A DNA stretch of 64,000 bases from Camelus dromedarius (taxonomy: Eukaryota), in contig NC_087436.1 of the NCBI RefSeq assembly GCF_036321535.1, forward strand, positions 11,966,001-12,030,000. Reading direction: 5' to 3'. Positions 351-47,005 of this stretch are shown piece after piece. Position 1 is the stretch's first letter, and each line of letters starts with the position of its first letter. A program made the translations under genes and the position numbers. The notes beneath the pieces are model-generated. The model searched no databases. It was not told the origin of the DNA and was given only the letters and a program-made list of their open reading frames with translations.

Positions 351-478
351 CCACAAAAATGGCATAAAAAACAGAGCTATTGGAGATGGATAAATGCAAG
401 GCAAAATCTTTTGGAAGTTAGAGAAGAATAAAATCTAGGATTCCGTGCTGTGAATGAATGGGTAGGTTATAGGATTTT

Positions 479-3400
479 TAAAAAAAAATTGGAGTATACT
501 CAGTTACAATGTAACAATTTCTGGCATACAGCACAATGCCTTAGTAATACATATACATACATATATTTGTTTTCATATTCTTTTTCTTTATAGATTATTA
601 GAAGATATTGAATATACTTCCCTGCGCTACACAGAAGAAACTTGTTCTTTATCTATTTTGTATACAGTAGTCAGTATTTGCACATCTCAAACTCCCAACT
701 TATCCCTTCCAAACTCCCCTCCCCCCAGCAACCACAAGTTTGTTTACTATGTCTATGAGTCTGTTTCTGTTTTGTAAGTAAGTTCATTAGTGTCTTCTTT
801 TTTCTTTTCATCTTACTTTAAAAATTATTTTTTTTTAGATTCCAGGTATGAGTGATATCATATGGCATTTTTGTTTCTCTTTCTGGCTTAGTTCACTTAG
901 AATGAGGATCTCCAGATCCACCCATGTCCCTGGCATTATTTTATTCTTTTTTTAATGTCTGAGTAGTATTCCATTGTATAAATATACCACAGCTTCTTTA
1001 ACCAGTCATCTGTTGATGGACGTTTAGGCTGTTTCCATGTCTTAGCTATTGTATATAGTGCTGCTATGAACACTGAGTGCATGTGTCTTTTCAAATTAGA
1101 GTTCCTTCCAGATATATGCCCAGGAGTGGAATTGCTGGATCATATGGTAAGTCTATTCTTAGTTTCTTGGGGAATGTCCATACTGTTTTCCATAATGGTT
1201 GCACCAAACTGCATTCCCACCAACAGTGTAGGAGGGTTCCATTTTCTCCACAGCCTCTCCAGCGTTTATAATTCATGGACTTTTTAATGATGGCCATTCT
1301 GACTGGTGTGAGATGACACCTCATTGTAGTTTTGATTTGCATTTCTCTGATAATTAGTGATACTGAACATTTTTTTCATATGCCTGTTGGCCATTTGTAT
1401 GTCTTCACTGGAGAATTGTTTAGTTCTTGTGCCCATTTTTGGATTGGGTTGTTTGGTTTTTGTATTATTAAGTCATTTGAGCTGTTTATACATTCTGGAA
1501 ATTGAACCTTCATCAGCTGCATCACCTGAAAATATTTTCTCCCATTCCATAGGTTGTCATTTTATTTTGCTTGTGGTTTCCTTTGCTGTGCAAAAGCTTA
1601 TAAATTTGACTAGGTCCCATTTGTTTATTTTTGCTTTATTTTCATTGCCTGAGTAGATTGCCCTAGGAGAGAACATTGTTAAGATTTATGTCCAAAAATA
1701 TTTTGCCTATATTTTCTTCTAGGAATTTTATACTGTCTTGTCTTATACTTAAGTCTTTAAGCCATTTTGAGTTTATTTTTGTGTATGTGTGAGGGACTGT
1801 CCTAATTTCATTAATTTACATGTGGTTGTCCATTTTTCCTAGCATCACTTGCTGAAGAGACTGTCTTTTATCCATTGTAAATTCTTTCCTCCTTTTTGAA
1901 GATTAATTGGCCATAAGCCTGTGGGTTTATTTCTGGGCTCTTTATTCTGTTCCATTGATCCATATGTCTGTTTTTCTGCCAATACCACACTGTTTTGATG
2001 ACTGCAACATTAGTGTCTGAAGTCTGGGAGGGTTATTCCTCCAGCTTCGTTCTTTTTCTTCAGTATTGCTTTGGCAATTCTGGGTCCTTTGTGATTCCAT
2101 ATAAATTTTAGGATTATTTATTCTAGTTCTGTGAAAATGTGCTGGGTAATTTGATAGGGATTGCATTAAATCTGTAAATTGCTTTGGGTAGTATGGCCAT
2201 TTTAACAATATTAATTCTTCCAACCCAAGAGCATGAGATATCTTTCCATTTCTTTAAGTCATCTTTAATTTCTTTAATCAATATTGTATATTTCTCCATA
2301 TTTAAGTCTTTCACATCCTTGGTCAGATTTATTACTAAGTATTTTATTGTTCTGAATATGGTTTTAATGAGATTATTTCTTTACTTTCTTTTTTGTGATT
2401 TTTCATTGTTAGTGTAAAGGAATGCAACTGACCTCTGTATGTTAATCTTGTATCTTGCTACATTGCTGAATTCATTTATCAGCTCTAGTAGTTTTTGTGT
2501 GGAGATTTTAGGGGTTTTTGTATATAGTATCATGTCATCTGCATATAGTGACAATTTTACAACTTCTCTTCCAATTTAGATCCCTTTTATTTCTTTTTCT
2601 TGTCTGATTGTTATGGCTAGGACTTCAAATACTATATTGAGTAGAAGTGGTGAGAGTGGGCATCCTTGTCTTTTTCCAGAATTTAGCAGGAAGATTTTCA
2701 ACCTTTGAATAATATGTTGGCTATGCGTTTGTCATGAAGTTGCAAGGCCCTAGGTTATGGATTGAGGTTTCAGCCATGCCTCCTCCTGGGAGCTGCACAC
2801 AAGCAATTGTGATGGCTAAGACTGAGCTCTGCCTCTTTTCTCGCAAGAATGCATCAACAATGGTGCTGAGAAAGTCCTCTGGGCTAGCAGAGATAGCAGC
2901 TATGGCCCAGCTCTGTTGTACCCCTACCCTTCATACACAAGCAGAGTTGCTTTTTTATGGGGATCCTAAGCTGTTTTCTTCTGTACGCACTCTCAGCCAT
3001 AAGCCATACGACACTCCAGCCCCCTCTATGCAGTCGGCCCCAACTCTGTCCTCGTGCTTATCACTGAGCTCCAGCAGCCAATCCTGGCCCACCCTTGCTG
3101 GCTCACGTCTACAGCTGGGGACAGTAGAGACCCTCTGTGTTGGATTCTCTCAGTTCTTTCTGCCACGTGGTTGCTGTTTTCTCCTCTGGGCCTCAGAAGC
3201 TCCCTCTCTATCTCCACTGACCTCCTGGATGGAGACGGGGCTTCCCTGGGTAAGAGCGCTTTTTCTCTTTTGCCACTCCCCAGGCAAGACAGGTCCCTCA
3301 CTGATTTCCTTTTTCCTTTTTATTCTCCTACCAATTTTTCTGAGGAGTTTTCTTCTATTTTGAAGTAAAAGATGTTCTGCCAAAGTCCAGTAGGTGTTCT

Positions 3401-3496
3401 GCATGAATGGACGGGTCTGTAGATGTAACTCTTGGTGTATTTATAAGAGAAGGTGAACTGTGTGTCCTTCTACTCTGCCATCTTGTCACTCCCCTC
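479..3496 (-). mobile_element. L1 element A: intact 5' end and ~760 bp of 5' UTR joined directly to distal ORF2 and 3' UTR (large internal deletion)
   Basis: ORF2 C-terminal peptides on - ([52 protein letters not shown]). 5' start gaggggagtgacaagatggcagagtag at 3496, homologous to the L1 5' end at 15000. Junction at ~2735. TSD taggatttt at 470 and 3497. Confidence 0.9.
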
Positions 3497-3505
3497 TAGG
3501 ATTTT

Positions 3506-14999: not shown

Positions 15000-17885
15000 T
15001 GCCAAGACGGTGGAGTAGTAGGATGCACAGCTCACCTGATCCCACGAACACACTGAGAATTACATCTACAGACCCATTAATTTGCACAGAACACCTACTG
15101 AATTTTGACAGAATATCTTTTACTTTGAAATTCAAGAAGATTCCTCACAAAAACTGGTAGAAAGGAAAAAGAAACAGGAAATTGGTGCAGAACCCGTCCT
15201 GTGGGGAGGGAGCAGCAAAGGAGGAATAGTGCCCTCGTGCTGGGACACTCTCTCTCCGGCCGAGAGTTTACCAGGGACAGAAATGGAGCTTCTGGGGCTC
15301 AGAGGAGAAAACAACACCTGTTTGGCAGACAGAACTAAGAGAAACCAGCACAGAGGGTCCCTATGATCCCCAGCGCTAGACAAGAGCCAGTGGGGTGGGC
15401 CAGGACTGGCTGCTGGAGGTTAGTGACTAGCCTGGGCAGAGGGCTGGGGCCCACGGCACAGAGGCAGCCTCAGGGGGCTGTGGGGTAGTGCAGGCTGTAG
15501 CTGGGAGTGTCTGCAGAACAGAGCAGCCTGGGGCTCCCATGAAAAAGCACCAGTGCTGGTGCACATGGGGAGGAAGGGCACAAGGCAGCTGGGCCATAGC
15601 TGCCATCCCTGCTGGTCAGTGTAGACATGCACTTGTTGGTGTCTTCTCACCAGAAGAAGGGGGGGGGGGCTCTGTCATAGCCATTACAACCTCTGGAGCA
15701 TGGCTCCTGGGTGGAGGCAGGGCTGAAAGCTGAATTCACACCTGGCAGCCCCCCCCCCCCCCCATTCACAGGCAGGACTGGTGGAGATTTGTTTACAGCC
15801 CCAGGCAGAGGGGTCAGATTTGCTCCGCTGGTGCCTTTGTGGACCCATGCCTCTCAGATTCCGCACGGAGTTCTGGCCAACAGCAGGGGCAGGTATGGCT
15901 TTACAATGGGCATGTGTACCATACCATACCTGGAGGCGGGCCGGGGTCTGTGCTGGCCCTGTGGCGCAGCATGGATCCAGCTGTGCGACTGTACACTCAC
16001 AGCGGCAGGTCTTGGTGCCTGACATCCGTGACTCTGCACTGGTTAGCTCTGCAGGTCGAGAGCCTGGGGACACCAGAGCAGGTGGCCGACATTCCCACAG
16101 CTAAGGCAGGGACAAGGGCAGTGGCAAAAAGAGTACCTTGTAAGCCTACATAACAAGTGACAGACAGCACCACAGAGGGCACCGCCTGGTGGACGTCTCC
16201 TGTAGAGGTGCACTCAGTGGCTCTTCTCCGAGCTGAAACACTCCAACCCCACCTACCACACACCACAGCTCAGAAATGGATGTGGAAGCCTCTATTCCTA
16301 CAACGGGGGGGGGGGGGGGGGGGGGGGGCGGGCAGACCCAGCCCTGTCAGGGCTGTGACAACCACAGAACAAGGAAGAAGGCCCACTCCACAGCAAAAAG
16401 CAGGTTGGCTCTGACCAGTACAAAACCAACCACACCCCCAGTCAAAGGGATGATGGGCAACACACGTGGAAGGAAGGCATGACAGCCACCCATACTAAGA
16501 ACAGCCCTCATTACAGGACTATTAGATGCATGCAGTCTACACAAAGACACTCCCATTTTAAATAAATAAAAGAAAAAACCACAGCCCTTCAAGACCACAG
16601 TAGATAACTGATACTCCTAAATCCACAGAACCAGAGAAATATAAGTAAAGTAAAGAAGCAAAGGAACCACTCCCAGTTAAAAGAGCAGAAGTCCCCTGAA
16701 AGCATAAGCAATGAGATAGACCTCAACAGTCTATGAGAATATGACATCAAAAAGGGGGTGACAAAAACACTTCAGGAAATAAGAGAGACTTTGAACAGAA
16801 ATTCAGGATACTATAAAAAGGAAATAGAAACTATAAGGAGGAGCCAACTAAAAACAGAAAACTCAATGGCTGAGATAAGAGCTGAGCTAAAGGCAGTCAG
16901 AGCAGATCAGGTAATGCAGAGGAATGAATAAGTGATGTAGAAGACAGGATGACCAAACTCACCTAATCAGGACAGCAGACAGAAAAGCCAGTAAAAACCA
17001 ATGACAACAATATAAAGGAACTATGGGATAATATAAAGGAACCAGCCTATGGATACTAGGGGTCCCAGAAGGAGAAGGAAGAGAAAAAGGCATTGAAAAG
17101 GTATTTGAAGAAATCATGACTGAAAAATTCCCAAACTTAAAGAAGAAATATCCAAGTACAGGAAGCTCAGAGGGTCCCAAACAAGAAGAACCCAAAACAG
17201 ACCTACACTAGAACATACTATCATTAAGATGGCCAAAGTTCAAGATAAAGAAATGATTCTAAAGTCAGCAAGTGAAAAACAAAGAGTTAGTTACAAGGGA
17301 ACCCCCATAAGACTTTCAGCTGATTTCTCTACACAAACCCTGCTGGCCAGAAGGGAGTGGCAAGATACATTCAAAGTCCTGAATGAGAAAAAGCTGCAAC
17401 CTAGGATACTCTATCTGGCAAAACTATCCTTTAGAATAGAAAGAGAGAGAAAGAATTTCACAGACAAGCAAAAGCTGCAAGAATTCTGCAATACTAAACC
17501 AATCCTAAAAGAAATATTGAAAGCTCTACTCTAAATAGAAAAGAAGTAGGAAGCTATAGAAATGAGAAAACCATAACTGGAAATGTGATAACTACAATGA
17601 ATTGCAAGAGAATAAACATGAAGATGTAAAAGAGGACATCAAAATTAAAAGGTGGGAGATGGAAGCAAGAAAATACAGATTTTTTTCTCTCTCTCTTTTT
17701 TTTTTCTTTTTTCTGTTCTTTTTAGGATGTGTTTGAACCTATATGAGAATCTAAAGCAAGCAGGGTTGGTAATGGATTAACATACATGAAAAACAGGGTA
17801 ACCACAAATCAAAAACTTACAATAGAGTCACAAAAAACAAAAACAAACAAACAAAAAGAACCCAAGATAATACAAAAAAAAATTT
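15000..17885 (+). mobile_element. L1 element D: 5' UTR, degenerate ORF1 and inter-ORF spacer, no ORF2
   Basis: 5' end homologous to L1 A. ORF1 C-terminus KGTPIRLSADFSTQTLLARREWQDTFKVL...KEILKALL* ends at 17534. The spacer ends in an A-rich tract at ~17882. Confidence 0.9.
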
Positions 17886-20754
17886 ATGAGGGGAGCACCT
17901 GCATCCAGTACAAATTATGGGACTGCCCTCCTCCTCAAGACAGATCTTACTCACTGAGGACACTGAATTGGGAAACCTAAATGCAATGGAAGTAATCGGA
18001 TCCCTGGGTGATGGAGGCCAAGTGGTGGCATGCAACCACCAAAGGCCAGGTGCGTGTGGTTACTGGGGTAGACAGCAGAGTTAAAGGGATTGCAGAGATC
18101 AGTACCACAAGCAAGGACTTGGAAGATGTGAGGGTGGTGATTCCCGCCACATCCCCATTCAATTTGCCTATCTGGCCTGTGCAGAAGACCGATGGATCTT
18201 GGAGAATGACAGTGGATTATCACAAACTTAGTCAGGTGGTGACTCCAATTGCAGTTGCTGTCCCAGATGTGGTTCTACTGCTTCAGCAAATTAATACATC
18301 TCCTGGTATCTAATATGCAGATACTGAGCTGATAAATCCTTTTTTTCTTTTCATCTGTTCATAAGGACCACTAGAAGCACTTTGCTTTCAGCTGGCAAGG
18401 CCAAAACTACCAGCTCACTGTTCTAACTCTGGGATATTGTCAGCTCTCTAGCCCTGCATCATAATTTAGTTCTTAGGGATCTTGGTCCCCCTTTCCTTTC
18501 ACAAGGAATCACACTGGTCCATTACATTGATGCCATTATGTTGATTGGATCTAGTAAGCAAGAAGTAGCAACTACTCTAGACTTATTGGTAAGACCTTCG
18601 TGTGTCAGAGGTGTAGAAACAAATCTAACAAAAATTCAGGGACCTTCTACCTCAGTGAAATGTCTAGGGGTCCAGGGGTGGGGGGCATGCTGAGATATCC
18701 TTTTCAAGGTGAAGGATGAGTTGTTAGATCTGGCCCTCCTTTGACCTCAAAAGGTACAATCTCTAATGTGCCTTTTGGATTTTGGAGGCAACACTTTCCT
18801 TTCGGTGTATTACTCCTGCCCATTTAACAGGTGATCTGAAAGGTTCTGAGTGGGGCCCAGAATAAGAGAAGCCTCTGCAACAGATCCGGCTGCTGTGCGT
18901 GCCTCTGCACCACTTGGGCCACATGATCCAGCACATCCAACGGTGCCTGAAGTGTGGACAGCAGATGAGGATGCTATTTGGGGCCCTTCTAGGTGAACTG
19001 CAGCATGGGCTCTTAGGCATTGGAGCAAACCCCTGACATCTTCACAGATAATTACTCTCCTTTTGAGAAACAACTCTTGGATTGCTACTGGGCCTTAGTA
19101 GAAACTGAACACTAAGCTTGCCATGTGACCTGAACTTCCCATCATGAATTAGGTGTTATCTGACCCACCAAGCCATAAAGTTGGGTGTGCACATTAGTGC
19201 TCCATCATCCAATGGAAGTGGTTTATACATGATTGGGACTGAGCAGACCCTGAAGACATAAGCAATTTACATAAAGAAGTGGCCCAAATGCCCACGGTCC
19301 CCCTCCTGCTACTCTGTCTTCCCTCCCCTAGCCTCACCTGTGACGCCATAGGGCGCTCCCTGTGATCAGGGGACAGAGGAAGAGAAGACCGGGGTCTGGT
19401 TTACAGAAGGCGCTGCATGAGTTGCAGGCACCACCGGAAAGTGGACAGCTGCAGCACCACTGCCCGTTCCTGGGACGTCCCTGAAGGACGGTGGTGAAGG
19501 GCAGTCCTCCCACTGGGAGCTTCGAGCAGAGCACCTGGCTGCTCATTTTACTTGGAAGAAGAAATGGTTAGACATGTGATTATATACACCAATTTATGGG
19601 TTATAGCTAATGATTTATTTAGAAGGTCAGAGACTTAGAAGGAGCATAATTAGAAAATTAGTGAAGGAAATTTAGGAAGAAGTATATAGATAACCCTTTG
19701 TATGGGCAAAAAATGTGAAGATATTTGTGCCTCGTGTGAACTCTCACCAAAGGCTCACCTCAGTGGGGTAGGATTTTAATAATCAAGAGGATGGGATGAC
19801 CCATTCTGTACATACCAGTCAGCCTCCTGGCCCAACCACCCCATCCATCACCCAACATAGCGCTGTTTCTGACCAAGAAACTCACTTCACAGCAAGTGTA
19901 GGGGGCCTAAGCTGACGAGACTCCCTGGTCTCACCACGTTTCCCACCGTCCTCAAAGCAGCTGGCTTGATGGAACAGGGGAATGGCCTCTGGAAGACTCG
20001 GCCACACTGCCAGCTTGACGGCAACATCTTGCAGGCCTGGGACAACATTTTCCAGAGGGTGTTCTTTCTGAATCATCGTCTGACGTGTGGTGCTATTTCT
20101 CCCACAGCCAGAAGTCATGGATTCAGGAAACAAGGGGTGGGGACGGCAGTGACCACTCACTATTGCCTCTAGTGACCCACTAGCAAAATTCGTGCTTCCT
20201 GTTCCCATGACCTTATGCTCTGCTGGCCTAAAAGTCTCCGTTCCAGAGGGAGAAATGCTTCCACCAGGAGGCGTAATGATGATTTCATTGAACTGAAAGT
20301 TGAGACTGCCACTTGGCTATTTGGGGCTCCTCGGGCCTCTGGCTTTATAGTTAAAGAAGGCCGTCACGGCGCTGGCTGAGGTGACTGATCCTGACCACCA
20401 AGGGGAAATTGGGGGGCTCCTCCCTGTGGAGGTAAGGAAGAGCATGTCTGGAATACAAGAGGTCCCCTAGGGCATCTCTTAATGTTACCATGCCCCATGG
20501 TTGATTTAAGGTTAATGGAAAACTGTGACCCAATCCAGGCAAGACTGCTGATGGCTCAGACTCTTCAGGAATGAAGGTTTGAGTTGCCCCATTGGGTAAA
20601 TGAATATGACCCGCTGAGCGGCTTGTCAAAGGCACAGGGGATACAGAATAGATGGTAGAAAACGGCAGTTCTTCATACCGGCTACAACCATGTGAGCAGC
20701 CACAGAAACGACTGCCATTGTCATGAGTGTCTTCTCCTTATTTTATCATGAATA
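17886..20754 (+). mobile_element. ERV-L internal region: gag remnant, pol (RT/RNaseH/IN) and dUTPase, degenerate with deletions
   Basis: RT peptide [71 protein letters not shown] (YIDD-like) at ~18520. WFTEGAA (RNaseH-like) at ~19397. SDQETHFTA (integrase-like) at ~19868. dUTPase-like segment at ~20200-20500. Confidence 0.93.
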
Positions 20755-34490: not shown

Positions 34491-35195
34491 ACCTCCATAT
34501 CTACATCTTATTACTGGGAGAGTGGACTTAACAATATATATTTTTTTAAATCTCTGAGCCATATTTGTTATTTGGGCCAGAACCCTGAGCAAGTCTAGAC
34601 TGGGGCTAAGAAGTTACAAATGAGAGAGTGGTATGGGGGAGTTAGGGCAGGGATCTCGACTAGTTGTGGCCTGGTTTGGGTCCCAGAATATACAAGAGCC
34701 AGGCAGGCAAGCAGGAGGCTGAGCAAAACCATCAAAGACAAGGTACAAGGACATGGTCCCAGAGCCCTTACATCAAGAAATCACCCTTTGCCTCCAGGAA
34801 GAAAGGTCTTGTTGGAGCCCACACATGGAAGCAGGAAGGCAGGAGCTGGGGCAGTGACGCCAGCAGCTGGCTTCCCCTCCGCGCACTGGCAGCACTGGGC
34901 TGCAAGGTACTTGACACGTTGTTTAATACTAGGGATTCATACAGCTGTGTTCTTATCCAAACAGTTCACAGTACCAAAGTCCTGCTGAGAATAGCTTTCC
35001 ACAAGCAGCTGGGCATCATGACTTCCTATAGCTTTCTGTGACACGATACTTCCCTTCAAGTGCCCCACCAGGCTGTTGAGAGTAAGCCTTAAACACTGCA
35101 GACAACTGGGGTGCCAGGACACCAAATGCTCTTCAATGTGGTCCTGTTTTTTTAATTTGAATCTTGAGTAGTTTTACACCTGACATTTATCAGTA

Positions 35196-35306
35196 CAGTT
35201 GGCCCTCTGTATCCAAAGGTTCTGCATCTGTGGATTCAACCAACAGCGGATCAAAGATTTGGTTGAATCCACAGATGCAGGAGCCGAGGGTCCTTAGGGC
35301 TGACTG
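35196..35306. mobile_element. Tigger/MER2-type palindromic MITE
   Basis: TA|cagttggccctctgtatcc ... agggctgactg termini. Perfect 22-bp internal inverted repeat at 35222-35243 / 35259-35280. Confidence 0.8.
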
Positions 35307-35479
35307 TCCGTGCAACCAGACAGGCAACAGAAATCATTGGATCGAGGTAAAAGGAGCCTAAGACCTTATTTGACCCTCATTAATCAACTGTATTCATTGC
35401 TCCAAGTTAGAATTAATTGGTACTTTTCGTATAATTTGCATTCTTGTTGGGTACCTTGAGAGATTTTCCCTCATTTTTT

Positions 35480-37992: not shown

Positions 37993-38643
37993 CCTTCAAT
38001 AGCATGGGGCCACCACACCTTGAAATACTTCGAATATGCAAGAGAAATTGACCATTTTAAGAAATCTTAGCCCATTTTTTTTTGGGTGAATAATTAACAA
38101 AACTTTCTTTGTGTTAAAATAGTGCTTATCTATTTTCATTACTTAAAATGTTGTACACTATATGCTCTAAGAGATAATCTGTCTCTAGGATTTGTAATGT
38201 GTTGCCAAAAGGGTCCCTTAACCATGGATGGGCTTCGTAGAATTAACGACGCCCTCTGCAGTTGAAGGCACATTTTACCTGTCTTTGCAAAAATGCGTTT
38301 CCTCACGGGGACAAACGTCCACCTTTCACCATATTCCTTGAGAGAACAAGTTTAAGTATTATTGCTCTAAGTAGTTGGGAAATTTACTGCTTAAAAATGA
38401 AGAAAGATATTTCAAAAAGATTTCCACTGCTTCAGAGAAGTATTCCTTTTCCTATTGAAACAGATGGAGATTTGGGAAAAGAGGAAAGAGAAGCTGGTAA
38501 AAGACATTGAAGAGCTTTTAATATTACAATAGATCATGGGATCATCCAACTTAACCTGTAACTCCTGCACATTAGGCTTTGTCTCTATGACCAATAAAGT
38601 TAAATTTGTGTATACTTATTTGTTCATTAGAAAGTTAGTTCCA

Positions 38644-38958
38644 GGCGCCTCTCTCACTCCCTCGTCTTCGAAGATGGCCCGCACTCTGTCCATGGGGTAC
38701 GTACCTGCTTTTACTTTAAACTGAGCCCGCGACCCCCACACCTCGTGGCCTTTCTCTCGCCTTCTGAGACAGCCTGCACTCTACACAGCATGTATCTCTC
38801 TAAATAAATCTGCCTTTACTCAACTGGGGCTCGCTCTTAAATTCTTTCCCACGTGAAGCCAAGGACCCACACTTGGTGGGCTCATCCCAGGGGCTCAAAG
38901 AAGACCTGGCACACGGCCCTCCTCACTCCCCATATTCATTTTTTCTTCCCCTGTATCA
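38644..38958 (+). mobile_element. ERV1 LTR, apparently R-U5 only (no U3 or TG start)
   Basis: Starts abruptly at ggcgcctctctc right after the TSD. AATAAA at 38803-38808. Ends ...tgtatca, followed by the PBS. Confidence 0.7.
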
Positions 38959-38964
38959 TCTCTC

Positions 38965-38982
38965 TGGTGCCCATCATGGGGT
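38965..38982 (+). other. Retroviral primer-binding site, tRNA-Lys(CTT)-like
   Basis: tggtgcccatcatggggt versus the Lys1,2 PBS TGGCGCCCAACGTGGGGC, just after the LTR end. Confidence 0.55.
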
Positions 38983-41860
38983 CTTTAAATAAAGAAACAG
39001 GGCTCAAAGGGCATAATCTCCATCTGCCTAATGGGCTGCTGTTCCCCTCTCTTTGAGGGGTGGCAGGGGTTTCTTCCAGGCCATGCAGATTCAAGTAGCC
39101 CTTAGGTGGCGGCTGACACTGCCTGCAGGATCCGGCAGAGACCGGCTTTCTAGTGATGAAGGAGCCCACTGAGCCCCAGGCTTTTCTCCCCTTGATCCTT
39201 TCTCATTCTCCCCTAACACTCTATCTCTTGGGACTCGAGAAGATCCACCAAGGGGACCACTTGGACATCCAAACTAAGACCATGTGGCAAGTAATCGGCA
39301 ACCTGGTTGAGCGAACTTCCCCTCTGTGGTTCCTTGAGCCTAATTCCGCTTTCCTATGTGGTCTTAGTCTCAGTCAGGTTCCAGGATCTGGAACCACGAA
39401 AGGGGGCCCAAATTAGGAGACTCTGGTATTTCCCCTTTAAAAAGTTGCAGCCCGACCCTCCCCGAGTGCCCTCCAGGCGTAAGGCCACATTGCATCTGTA
39501 GACTGGAATTGCAGGCAGGCACTCCCTTTGCAGATCACGTTTTTTTTTTGCACCCCTGAGTGAGAGTTGCCAGCAAGCACTCTCTCCACGGGTCAGGGGT
39601 TTTTGCACCCCTGGGTGGGGTCATGGGTTTATGCACCCTTGAGTGGGTGTCACAGGCAAACACTCCCTTCACGGGTCACGGGTCTTGGCACCCCTCTTGC
39701 GGTCGTGGTTTCATTACACCCCTGAGTGGGAGTTGGGGCGGGCACTCCCTCAGTGGGCCCACGGAGCTCTGATCTAGGAAGCGCTGTGTACACCTTCCTG
39801 TCAACTCGCTTCTCCTCTGGGAAGCATCTTGGCTGTCCACCTTCCCTCTGTGCCCTGGATTTCTCTTACATCCTCCTCCGTCCTGGCTCCTCAGACTGAC
39901 TGTCTGTTGATACCTGAGGCTCATTTTCACTGCCTTGTTGCGCTCTAGCCCTGCCTTTTGGCTCTATTTGTTTCCCATTCTTTTGCAGAAGATAATCCAC
40001 TTAGTTGACTCAGGCCTAGGCCTTCTCCCTCCCTCTCTGAAAGATTAGGCCATGGAGCTGTGGTCACTTTTTCCAGCTGCATCATTGAACCACAAAAAGA
40101 AGGTAAACAGGAGAAGTCCTGTATGTCCAAGTGTCCCTGACCTGATTCCAAGGCTCAGGTTTAAGGAACTCCTGCTGGGAATGCCTGCCTCCCACCCCTC
40201 CAAAGCGTCTTTTACAGGAGCTCAGTGTTTCAGATGACCCCGTACAGGTTCACCTCCCCGAGGGCCACAGCCGGGAACTTTCACCTCCCCTGACCTGAGG
40301 GGGGACGGTCTTCCCAATCATCTACCCCTAAGGCTCCTTCTGGGCAGCTGGGGACCCCAGACCCCCATGAATCAGCTTATGGATTTGGCTTTTGGAGTAT
40401 TTAACAATAGAGACAGTGTTAAAGAGGCAGAAAGGATTCAGGGACAACAGCAAAAGGCACAGTTTTTAGCGGCAGCCCTAACTCCTGCATCACCTCAGGG
40501 TTACCTGCGCTTGTGAAGACGCATGGCAAGGACAAGATCCAGGACGCCTGAATCAGAGCCACTGTCTTGCTGAGAAGGGACCTGTTTTAAGTGCAGCCAG
40601 GAGGGGCAACTACAAGGATGAATGCCCCATGTTTGGGAAAAGTCCATCAGGACCCTGCCCCATATGCAAACAAAAAGGCCACTGGAAGAGGGGCTGCCCC
40701 AGGTCTGGAAGAGGGGGCTCCCAAACCAATGATGGCTGAGCTGACTGAAGACTGATGGGGCCCAGGAACTCCCTGGTTCCCAAAGGACACCTGGTCATTT
40801 CTCTAGAGAAGACTTCGGTAACCCTTGACGTGGCAGGTAGAAAAGTGTTTTTCTTATTAGATGCAGGAACTGGCTACTCTGTGCTGACTGATGTCCCTGG
40901 ACACTTGTCCTCCCAATCCTGTGTAATAATGGGGGTTGACGGAAAGCCCCAAACCAAGTGATTCATACCCCAACCTCCTTTTAGCTGCCTGCTAGAAAAT
41001 CTTACCTTTGCACATCAGTTTCTGCTGGTGGCTGAGTGCCTCATCCCCTCATTAGGAAGGGACCTGCTCGCTAAAGTCCAGACAATAATCCAATATGGAG
41101 ACCCTTACATGAATGACACCCACCAAGAGAAATGTCTGCTCTTGGGCTCTTGGCTTTGGGAGTCTGCCTCAGTCCCAAGCCAGAGGTTCCCTTCCACCCC
41201 ACATTGTTTCTCAAGTGAAACCTGCTGTCTAAACTGAGGTCCCTGACAGTTACTATCATCAGGCTACAGTTAGAAATGGGACCACATGGGGCTCTAGGCA
41301 AGCCTCTCCAGATCAAAGGCCGAACTGAGAACCGTAATTAAAAACTTCTCAGATCCAAAAAGGATTCTCAAAAGTGTTTGTAAGTAGATTGCCAAATGGG
41401 AGGCCATCTACCACTCCCAAAACCTCTCCTACTTATCTTAAGAGACTTACAAGTATTGAGGAAAGATTTTTCCTTTTTCTGGCTTTAAGGGAACAAAGTC
41501 TTTCTAGGAGAAACTTACCTTCCTGTGCCTTTGAGATACAAATATTCTACCTTGTCTTCTCCAGGAACTCTGATCTTACCATCTTTTAAGATGCAAATTT
41601 CAAAAAAGGGAGATTAAATAGTTTGGAACTTTACTTGTTAAGGACAAAGAAAAATTTCGTCTCTTTCTCACAAATATTAGTAAAAAGGTTTAGCCATCTA
41701 GATGGGCAACTTTAATTTGTTTTATCTGCCAGAAACCCAATTTAAACCAAACTTCTTTTGTAAGGAATAGGTTTTACATAGTTATATCTGATTCATGACT
41801 AAAATTTTAAAATGAAAACAGATATAAGTTCTCTGTTTTATATGTTTGTATGTCATAGAT
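38983..41860 (+). mobile_element. ERV1 (class I) internal region: leader, degenerate gag with two zinc knuckles, protease, then MER4-group-like AT-rich non-coding sequence; no RT seen
   Basis: GPQTPMNQLMDLAFGVFNNRD (gag). CFKCSQEG at ~40583 and CPICKQKGHWKRGCP at 40656-40700. Gag stop at ~40753. Protease VTLDVAGRKVFFLLDAGTGYSVLT and IPSLGRDLLAKV. Confidence 0.85.
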
Positions 41861-41869
41861 GCAAGGGTT

Positions 41870-42083
41870 TCCAAATGCAAGTGCTAACCACTATATATAA
41901 AAATAGATAAAAAACAAATTTCTTCTATATAGCACAGGGAACTATAGTCAATATCTTGTAATAACCTATGATGAAAAAGAATATGAAAACGAACATATGT
42001 ACATATATGTATGACTGGGGCATTATGCTGTATGCCAGAAATTGACACATTGTAACTGACTATACTTCAAAAAAAAAAAAAAG
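41870..42083 (+). mobile_element. L1 3' terminus and poly(A) fused to the ERV1 segment
   Basis: tgctaaccactatatataaaaatagat...tatagcacagggaactatagtcaatatcttg...gtaactgactatacttcaaaaaaaa. Confidence 0.9.
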
Positions 42084-43457
42084 AAAAAGTTAATTCCATA
42101 ATTTATAGAGAGGCAGACCTGGGTAAGCTGCAAATACTTATCTGTAAAAGTGCTGTGTGCCACACTCCATATGTCAACAGAGAAATGAGGTTACTTGCCT
42201 CTAAAGAGAGAGAGCTGGGAGGGTGGATGGTGGTTCAGATCAGGGCCCCTGAGTCTGTGTGGCCGAACACAGTGGCTGCAGAGCAGTCATTTTCACAGGA
42301 AAGCAGGCACACATTCTACTGGGCACACACGAAGGTGGTCTCAGGGCCATGAGATCATCAGTAGTTTCACAGAAATCAATTTCCCAGTCTTCAGTTTCCA
42401 TCTTTGGTCATTCCTAATGTGGATGAGTTCGAGGATTTGTAAGCAGGCCCTCCTTTCTCGCCTCTCTTTTCAAAGTCATCCTTTCCACACTTTCCCACAA
42501 AGGAAACGAGGGCACAGTTTTTACCCATCCTCATTCCTACCATGGTGCATCGCCTCGGAGTGGGAAAACCTCTGGAAGGAAATGAAAGAACAGATACATT
42601 GCAGTGGGCAGTGAGAAAGGGAATGACCGACTGCTATGGGCAAACCTTTTGAATTTAATAGTTTCCCAAGTATTGCCTTCAACACAAGTGAAAAAGAACC
42701 TAATCAAGTTATCATATTACATCAAATAATTACTTTTGATAAATAGATCGCCATGAGATTTTTGGCCTGTAACTGAGAAGGAATTTAGAGAACTGAGGAA
42801 CTCTACTGAATTATTTTCATTCCTATCTGTTTTCTAACAAGCTTTTTTTTTTTTTTCCCCCTTTCAGTGTTTCTATTAAATAAGGAAAAGGAGTAATGAA
42901 GCTTAGGCTGGGGTCCACCTCATTCTAGTAATAGATAATATTTATCCTTGACCACATAAATTAATTTTAACAGCCCCATCCATTTTATTAAAAGATGCAT
43001 TTCCAAAAATACTTTTTATAATTAGTAATTATTTATACATTATTTATATGTTGTTTTGATCAGTTATCAACTACTACTAATAATACTGATACCTCAATTG
43101 AGAAAAAATTTTTAAAACTTAGAGACTTGTGATCATAGAAGAAAATTTAAATTTCTCATTTAAATTTCTGTACTTATTCTATGACAGAAAAATGTGATAG
43201 GATGAACAAAAATAGACTTTCAAGCTTAAAACATTATATTTGAATAAAACTCTGTGATGAATGTTGAAAGAAAATATAAATTCAAGAAGAAGATGGGATA
43301 ATGTAAAAATTTTGTATATTAAAGAAGAGATTGTCTTGCATTTTTCAAATGGATTGTGGTTGATGGAGTATCAAATATTCTTGGTAGAAGATTCTATTGG
43401 AACATATAAAAGAGTGATGAAAATGTTTATAATACACTATTTCTTACATCTCTACAA

Positions 43458-45299: not shown

Positions 45300-47005
45300 A
45301 ATGGCTCACAGAATGCGATAAACATGTATAAAAGCAAAGCATAGCATATAATTTAATACCCATGCATTTGTAGCTACAGTAAAACATAACAGATTTATCT
45401 GAAGGCCCTGTTTAGCTCTTCCTAGTCCTAGTCACCTCTTTCCCCCTTAGAGGGAACCACTCTCCTAACGTTGTTTCCTTTTTACGCATGATTTAATTTT
45501 TTTCACTATATGCGTATTTTCCATAAATAATTTGAAGTGATGAAACTTTACATATGTGAAATAATACTGTATATACCAATATGATTTTTTTTTCAGGATA
45601 CTGTTTAAAACTTTTACAAGTAGAGTATGTAGTTTTATATAGTTTAATGTTATTTATCTTTCCTTTTAAATTTCACTTCACACATTTTGGTTTTTAATCA
45701 ACCTCAAATTGATTTTCTGTGTCATGTGAAGCAAGGACCATAATTTGTTCAACATGGAAAATAACTTGTCCTTGAAAAATCTATTAACCAGCCTATCTTT
45801 TCCCGTTGATTTTATCCCACGTCTATAGTATATGGAGTCTCCACACACCTGGGTCTCTGCTCTGTCCCATTGGTGGTCCCCTTCTGTGCCAGTCCCACAC
45901 GGTCTCATTTACCCTAGTTGTACTTGGACTCTAGACTTAATAGTCTTAATAACTGATAGGCAACTCCTTCCTCTTCAAAATTATCTTAGTTATTCTCGGT
46001 CCTTTATTCTCCTATATGAATTTTACCATCACATTTTGAAGTTTTGCACATATTCTTACTAGGATTTTTAGTAGAATTGCATTAAATTGTAGAACAATTT
46101 TAGAGGAATCAATACCTTTAGACAGTTGAATTTTCTATCTAAGTAGGACTACTTTTATGTCCTATTTTTAAAATTTATTATTTATTTTATTATATCTTGT
46201 TTTTTCTTTATTGTTATTTTATTTGTTCTATTATATCTTATTGTATTATTTATTTTATTATATGTATTATTTACTTATTTATTATTTATTTTATTATATC
46301 ATATTTATTTTATTAAATCTTGTTATTTATTTTATTATTTTAATATATAATATATTATATTATTATTTATGTTATTATATCTTGCACAGCAGATGTTTGG
46401 ATTTATTTCTGTATACTTCAGGCTTATTTTGCTACTGTCATTGTTTTTTTCTTCCACCAGCAAAATTTATTTTACTGTCCTGCGTCTGATAAACCGTTTC
46501 AATTTGAGTCTTGTGCCCAACCTAGAAAATTTTTCTTTGGTTCCCTTATTTTATTGTCCTGGTTCTATCTTTCTGAAATTTCGTTAGACAGAGGAAGTTG
46601 AGCTCATATTCATTCCCCATGTCCCTTAGTTCTTCAAGTTCTTTGTCTTTTCGCTCTATGTTTTAGAAAATTTTCATGAGTTTATCTTCCAGATTATTAA
46701 TCTAGTCCTGAGGGATGATTATTTCAGGATTTGGCTGATGGAGGTACTAGATGTTTGATATCAGTGCTCATGTATTTGCTTTCCAAGAACTCATTCTCCT
46801 TTTATGATTGTTCTTATTTTATTACCAGACTTTATTTTTCCTTTTATAGATTAAGTATTCTCTTGTATCCCGGAGGGGGCTATTAAGAGTATTTTAAATT
46901 TCTCTCTGTTCCCTGCATTTCTTTTTCTTCGGGCTCAGGCATTCTGCTTATTGATCTTTGTTGTTTCCTTTGCTTTTTCTCAAATATCTTTTTGTCCCTT
47001 ATGTT
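45300..47005 (-). mobile_element. Old L1M/L1ME-type fragments with an embedded AT-rich low-complexity tract
   Basis: Pyrimidine-rich degenerate L1-like sequence (ccttagagggaaccactctcct, gtagaattgcattaaattgtag). Confidence 0.5.
46165..46385. repeat. AT-rich low-complexity (TTATT/TTAT)n tract
   Basis: Directly visible. Confidence 0.9.

Follow-up and report, generated by a model that had tools for sequence, protein, structure and literature searches.

Introduction

A class I endogenous retrovirus (ERV) inserted by integrase has two full long terminal repeats (LTRs) with TG...CA ends and is flanked by a target-site duplication (TSD) of 4-6 bp. SVA and LAVA are composites of repeat-derived parts, SVA with HERV-K sequence and LAVA with a piece of L1; both are moved by L1, are amplified, and have a core with a variable number of tandem repeats. 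The processed pseudogenes of HERV-W, as described in the accessible parts of two papers, carry R-U5, U3-R, and poly(A), lie at TT/AAAA sites within a TSD of 5-15 bp, and number 135 copies in human (PMC5016936, PMC5537654); the available portion of a review calls W the sole HERV group mobilised in this way (PMC5537654). Chimeric insertions of L1 have also been described with several 5' partners, i.e., U6/L1, U3/L1, U5/L1, Alu/L1, and mRNA/L1, in sources that were accessible in part (PMC4476161; bioRxiv 10.1101/2025.02.02.635956). Here, we analyzed a 64,000-nt stretch of the Camelus dromedarius genome (contig NC_087436.1, positions 11,966,001 to 12,030,000; hereafter the window), which is mammalian repeat-rich DNA and in which a unit at 38629-42098 joins an ERV part to the 3' end of an L1. 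Judged from its sequence, the unit appears to fit the class of 5'-partner/L1 chimeric insertions, i.e., a copy of a non-L1 RNA lies 5' of a sense L1 end within one TSD. We suggest that it was made by a single event of target-primed reverse transcription (TPRT) on a chimeric ERV/L1 template, with no later amplification, and we give this reading a probability of about 0.75.

For camelids, short and probably non-autonomous ERV1 clusters have been described in the alpaca, and the word "chimeric" does not occur in the part of that paper that is accessible (PMC8605555). The accessible part of another paper (PMC6500023) concerns an engineered construct and has no bearing on the locus. Among the titles and abstract beginnings that we found, mostly outside the subscription literature, none describes a camelid retrocopy that is ERV at its 5' end and L1 at its 3' end.

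Results

One target-site duplication probably encloses the ERV and L1 parts

A first-pass annotation of the window had bracketed the unit with a 15-bp repeat whose left copy follows TT, as at an L1 endonuclease site, and both claims held. Aligned without gaps, the two flanking copies (38629-38643 and 42084-42098) are identical at 13/15 positions. A gapped alignment extends the right copy to 42082-42098 and yields 14/15 identical positions plus two extra A residues within the A-run; the G in the apparent poly(A) tail is thus part of the right copy. On neither strand does the window contain a further match of at least 13/15 to the right 15-mer. As a control for chance repeats, we used 4607 AT-rich 15-mers that are not of low complexity: 0/4607 had a 13/15 match in a 151-bp bin ~3.4 kb upstream, and 66/4607 had such a match somewhere in the 4 kb upstream.

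The TT immediately before the left copy gives an insertion site of TT/AGAA, a tolerated variant of the L1 endonuclease motif. That motif is TT/AAAA in the available part of PMC5016936. Independently of the repeat, a two-segment fit of GC content placed a change-point at 38641 (within 2 log-likelihood units, 38630-38646 in two of three spans and 38629-38646 in the third), and the left copy ends at most three bases from it. A TSD of the L1 part alone was considered and rejected, the best ungapped candidates being 5/7 or 6/9 identical. Hence, given the alignment, the TT site, the change-point, the control, and the lack of an L1-only TSD, there is a high likelihood that the flanking repeat is an L1-type TSD around the whole unit.

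The same evidence bears on a coincidence, in which a provirus eroded at both ends would lie beside an unrelated 5'-truncated L1, within a repeat that arose by chance. The DNA is AT-rich, 13/15 matches do occur within 4 kb among the control 15-mers, and no empty site was found; set against this are the position of the left copy after TT and next to the GC change-point, the complete lack of control matches in the 151-bp bin, and an L1 part that has no TSD of its own. We regard such a coincidence as improbable. An L1-made retrocopy of some kind is very likely; the sequence itself shows an endonuclease-type site, a duplication of 15 bp around the unit, a poly(A), an L1 end in sense orientation, and an ERV start that lies inside the LTR.

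Possible routes to the ERV/L1 junction

In the favored single event, ORF2p would have nicked the target at TT/AGAA, primed on a poly(A), and copied ~190 nt of L1 before moving on to an ERV RNA driven by the LTR, which it would have entered internally and followed for 3.2 kb to or near the 5' end. A copy of this kind would have no promoter of its own and would be dead for re-transcription because U3 is missing; its coding capacity is also nil. The figure of 0.75 covers both ways of joining the two parts, i.e., in trans (by template switch or RNA ligation) or as a pre-joined read-through RNA, and the trans route, which holds the larger share, falls somewhat short of an even chance by itself. Our slight lean toward it rests on three observations. 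First, no TT/AAAA-like start of an older TSD was seen by eye 7-20 nt upstream of the junction. Second, there is no AATAAA at the end of the L1 tail, and no transduced ERV sequence lies beyond it. Third, the L1 part is short. The lack of a donor-motif match in the element also favors joining in trans. A sense L1 tail is present, as had been annotated, but it spans ~192 bp (41877-42068) rather than ~210 bp. This tail is 85% identical to the window L1 copy at 489-682, and its three-point branch length relative to the L1 copies at 489 and 56784 is 6.5%, a rough value from three sequences. The L1 3' ends of the window look camelid.

A pre-joined template would derive from a provirus with a 5'-truncated sense L1 embedded in its AT-rich region, whose LTR-driven RNA stopped where the L1 stops and was then retroposed by L1. 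Ordinary steps suffice for this route, contig depth (below) leaves room for one or two distant whole-element relatives, and a protein cluster with seven members (P0044), in which an ERV protease frame runs into L1 3'-end-like residues, argues for sense junctions elsewhere. Against it stand the same lack of an endonuclease-type TSD start upstream of the junction, of a poly(A) signal, and of transduced sequence, together with the contig test, which disfavors any source of at least ~90% identity. We hold this route to be possible, on a more tentative footing than joining in trans.

The first-pass annotation had proposed these two routes, either termination of an ERV RNA at an internal L1 poly(A) signal or a switch of the L1 reverse transcriptase (RT) to an ERV RNA. 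Its core, one L1-driven ERV/L1 insertion within a single TSD, stands; the data do not separate the two routes, and a third had not been considered. In that third route, a complete ERV processed pseudogene with this TSD came first, and a later L1 inserted into its poly(A), the ERV 3' part being deleted then or afterwards. Both TSD copies would be kept without any RNA chimera, and the L1 at ~470-3499 of the window does sit in the tail of another L1. However, a second insertion and a deletion that spared no U3-R remnant are needed, and no such remnant was found; we consider this sequence of events unlikely.

The junction can be placed no finer than 41862-41877. Within the junction zone (Table 1), the TTCCA between the two ATGCAAG copies is the same as the last five letters of the TSD. 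This pattern, noticed post hoc, could be due to chance, or it could reflect microhomology together with filler that was copied from the end of the target. Splicing as the means of joining was rejected, on weak grounds: there is no match to two donor motifs in the element, and the L1 upstream of the junction is purine-rich.

A second sense junction may exist at the protein level. In P0044 and P0161-P0166, proteins from ENA contigs, another ERV nucleocapsid (NC)-protease frame, 30% identical to the frame of the locus, runs into L1 3'-end-like residues that match translated window positions 41901-41972 at 60-65% over 20-24 aa. The seven members form two groups (92-99% identity) and resemble alleles or orthologues of a single locus more closely than they do a family; the cluster probably represents an independent ERV/L1 sense junction in another host. 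For P0002 and P0044, no loci were retrieved from viral contigs.

Public contigs contain the insertion and loosely bound its copy number

We compared contigs from 4 of 24 public runs (X1, X6, X15, and X17) with the locus; X1, from organism A, and X6, from organism B, are DNA. The runs that contain most of the window have contigs of about 2,000 million letters. The comparison covered 32 of 89,720 pieces, 24 of 2,424 loose ends (mostly L1), and 15 of 129 joints, and positions 42063-42096 were skipped as repeat. Contig depth does not equal copy number and was used merely as a loose bound. The left junction lies within exact contigs (0 other letters) at 38100-38737 in X1 and 38100-38761 in X6, and both runs have further exact contigs at 39088-40377, 40905-41457, and 42097-42600. 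The insertion is real and is present under both organism labels. An empty allele is disfavored in X1 and X6 because the left contig is unbroken at the TSD, where an empty allele should break it.

The contig at 39088-40377 is unbranched over 1290 bp, at a depth of 14.0 (X1) and 9.0 (X6) as compared with 14.1 and 13.6 in the flank. If contigs break at shared 31-mers, the chance of an unbranched contig in the presence of a sibling of 95%, 90%, 87%, or 85% identity is ~0, 0.008, 0.11, or 0.29, respectively. The lowest internal bin depth is 36.8 (X1) and 32.5 (X6), less than three times the flank. Among the pieces listed, the longest relatives are 80-89% alike.

These data bear on a reading that the first-pass annotation had raised on the condition that the unit is multicopy: a non-autonomous composite retroposon, here one whose ERV 5' part is followed by a tail of L1. 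The logic would be like that of SVA and LAVA. The case for it is weak because the 1.29-kb contig is unbranched at or below single-copy depth; siblings of at least ~90% identity are disfavored, the junction itself being uncounted. The low minimum depth and the modest likeness of the longest relatives also speak against such a family, and a U3-less copy is promoterless, so that further copies could come only from a master locus. In its favor, the AT-rich part by the junction is far deeper than the flank in X1 (see below), and members could be old or differently 5'-truncated. We judge a composite family to be highly improbable and a young multicopy composite unlikely. An old, small, lineage-specific family, in which LTR-driven RNAs from a master provirus with an embedded L1 end were repeatedly copied by L1 and whose members are at most 87% alike or 5'-truncated into the AT-rich part and so escaped the contig test, is scarcely more probable; if true, a non-primate host would carry an SVA/LAVA-like element that begins with retroviral sequence and has an L1 tail.

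Several points weigh against a one-off insertion of a chimeric template. We infer, rather than observe, that the ERV part starts at R. Among the pieces listed, no contig spans the ERV/L1 junction, and none of the joints listed skips the element, as an empty site would. Siblings of 87% identity or less may escape the contig test (the probability that they share no 31-mer is 0.11-0.29), and given that the branch of the L1 tail is 6.5%, a sibling of the same age could be as distant as ~87%. In X1, the bins of the AT-rich stretch near the junction have depths of 166-366 versus ~14 in the flank, i.e., 12-26 times the flank. From the accessible parts of the literature, template switching among small nuclear RNAs (snRNAs) seems largely restricted to U6/U6atac (PMC4476161), and 17 mRNA/L1 chimeras have mostly near full-length L1, unlike the short tail here (bioRxiv 10.1101/2025.02.02.635956).

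Two other runs cover parts of the region or its relatives. In X15, guessed to be RNA and possibly DNA, depth is 69.5 at 38100-38401 versus 2-3 in the far right flank, with 2 other letters in 344 on the left flank; this may be a transcribed stretch or may come from a different individual or species. In X17, an RNA library of the reproductive system in which DNA is possible, contigs among the pieces listed are 82-88% alike to the ERV interior, one of them at a depth of 65.8, and the left flank has no cover; ERV relatives may be transcribed there. Neither run shows expression of the locus at 38629-42098.

Features of the ERV part

Table 1. Features of the ERV/L1 unit in window coordinates
Feature	Position	Strand	Basis
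L1 endonuclease-type site TT/AGAA	38627..38632	+	sequence; motif PMC5016936
Left copy of the probable TSD, 15 bp	38629..38643	+	repeat alignment; GC change-point 38641
5'-clipped LTR (presumed R-U5), 315 bp	38644..38958	+	alignment vs shuffles; multicopy by depth
Primer-binding site (PBS)-like 18-mer, 6 nt past LTR end	38965..38982	+	sequence
ERV leader with 83-bp, 2.2-copy tandem repeat (39551-39730)	38983..40040	+	gag boundary approximate
Decayed gag (NC zinc knuckles) and protease, apparently class I	40041..41240	+	protein matches; stops, frameshifts
AT-rich ERV internal sequence, cut at junction	41241..41876	+	GC 0.35; paralogous contigs
Junction zone: ATGCAAG twice, 16 nt apart, TTCCA between	41859..41881	+	sequence; noticed post hoc
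L1 3' end, sense, ~192 bp	41877..42068	+	alignment to window L1 copies
Poly(A), 13 A	42069..42081	+	sequence
Right copy of the probable TSD, 17 bp with A-run expansion	42082..42098	+	gapped alignment

The annotated gag-pro was borne out by protein comparison. The frame at 40482-41234 (three stops read as X) matched the XMRV protease (E 3.3e-11) and NCp10 entries of gammaretroviral type (E 0.005), with 400 representative proteins at E<=0.001 (best identities 63% and 54%). Pfam returned only sub-threshold zinc-knuckle matches, in 1/10 pieces, plus one unrelated weak match. By the similarity of its NC and protease, the ERV part appears to be class I (gamma-like). No RT was seen after the protease, in that pol-bearing relatives match nothing in 41260-41876. 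We assign the AT-rich stretch to the ERV interior because paralogous contigs extend over it at least as far as 41779. The protease frame, searched against protein space, gave 15 candidates, none at E<=0.001, and frames across the LTR start (minus strand) and the ERV/L1 junction gave no protein candidates; these blanks carry no weight. Elsewhere in the window, an RT fragment at 18077-18301 (+) is 35-41% identical to pol-bearing proteins (best E 6.6e-10), and we take it to be ERVL-like.

The LTR part starts abruptly without TG and ends in CA. It has an AATAAA at 38803, 160 nt into the clipped LTR, and a motif scan of 38644-38958 gave no TATA match. A TTTAAA at 38715 was considered as a TATA box and rejected, because in alignment it falls on the sequence that follows the AATAAA in the second R unit. 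An internal duplication of ~95-100 bp, whose first unit has no AATAAA, scored 56 in alignment as compared with 35±5 for shuffles (maximum 48, n=300). In X1, depth rises from 800 in the bin that contains the first unit to 24,254 in the bin after it (38704-38854), versus ~14 in the flank, and one contig links 38689 to 38787, as expected of a single-unit LTR. Because of this depth step and this contig, the first unit is probably characteristic of an LTR subfamily. We take the layout to be MER41-like, the clipped LTR starting about where the cap site of a MER41-like element would presumably lie, and presume that the LTR part is R-U5 with its start at R (the cap site).

As the first-pass annotation had it, there is no 3' LTR: the window contains no second copy of this LTR, no LTR-type 3' end, and no U3-R remnant. 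Scans for LTR motifs in viral, metagenome, and genome contigs gave no match, a blank that carries no weight. An integrase-made provirus was considered and rejected, the locus having one clipped LTR and a 15-bp repeat. The observed/expected CpG ratio is 0.80 at 38644-38825 (9 CpG in 182 bp), versus 0.25 in the window and 0.15-0.33 elsewhere in the element, possibly a trace of low germline methylation, on small numbers. The PBS-like 18-mer presumably resembles a tRNA-Lys PBS, and a paralogous contig of 80% identity covers 38950-39496.

Other repeats in the window

The L1 at 470-3499 (minus strand) is 3.0 kb long, with ~750 bp of sequence like a 5' untranslated region (70% identical to 15000-15738) that is fused, near 2730, directly to the 3' portion of ORF2. 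It has a flanking repeat of ~9-10 bp, is nested in the poly(A) of an L1 that ends at ~3507, and may be spliced or internally deleted. An inverted repeat at 35195-35307, with 49-nt arms that are 78% complementary and 15 nt apart, is in our view a Tigger-type miniature DNA transposon. A degenerate AT-rich tandem array with periods of 12-68 occupies 46174-46380. Rfam and ARAGORN gave no matches in the window.

Discussion

We suggest that the locus is a well-formed, old L1 chimeric retrocopy whose 5' partner was retroviral and which probably exists once. It has the look of an isolated, dead accident and not of a newly arisen family of mobile elements. If it is a one-off, retroviral RNA becomes a further 5' partner of L1 in chimeric insertions, and L1 has copied ERV RNA outside the HERV-W group, the sole human group so mobilised according to the accessible part of PMC5537654. 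The left edge would then mark the cap site of an LTR subfamily. The insertion is a clean presence/absence marker with no evident function, and a multicopy junction, if true, would raise its importance greatly.

How does the locus compare with the known systems? Like the HERV-W processed pseudogenes, it appears to be an L1-copied ERV RNA with a clipped 5' LTR, a poly(A), a TT/AAAA-type site, and a TSD whose length is within their range. However, HERV-W copies end in the U3-R of the 3' LTR, whereas this locus ends in the 3' end of an L1; it also differs in its non-primate host, its short AT-rich ERV interior, and its apparently single copy. It works like a HERV-W processed pseudogene, yet without U3-R it is not a member of that group. 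Like SVA and LAVA, it combines parts that derive from repeats and appears to have been moved by L1, but there is no evidence of amplification here, and the sole tandem array consists of 2.2 copies of 83 bp.

The 5'-partner/L1 chimeras, as described in the accessible parts of the sources, have a structure like that of the locus: the copy of a foreign RNA precedes an L1 3' end that is in sense orientation and 5'-truncated, with one TSD around both, an endonuclease motif, and a poly(A). Their U3 and U5 partners are 3'-truncated, as is the ERV partner here, and the L1 part of the locus is short, as in the U6/L1 chimeras (bioRxiv 10.1101/2025.02.02.635956). The mRNA/L1 chimeras of the same source are different, having mostly near full-length L1 and often splice signals, and its main text, as far as it is accessible, contains 0 words beginning with ERV or HERV and 4 mentions of LTR. 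What sets the locus apart from the known chimeras is a partner that is a retroviral RNA of 3.2 kb. We regard the locus as a variant of the known L1 chimeric retrocopies and of HERV-W-type processed pseudogenes.

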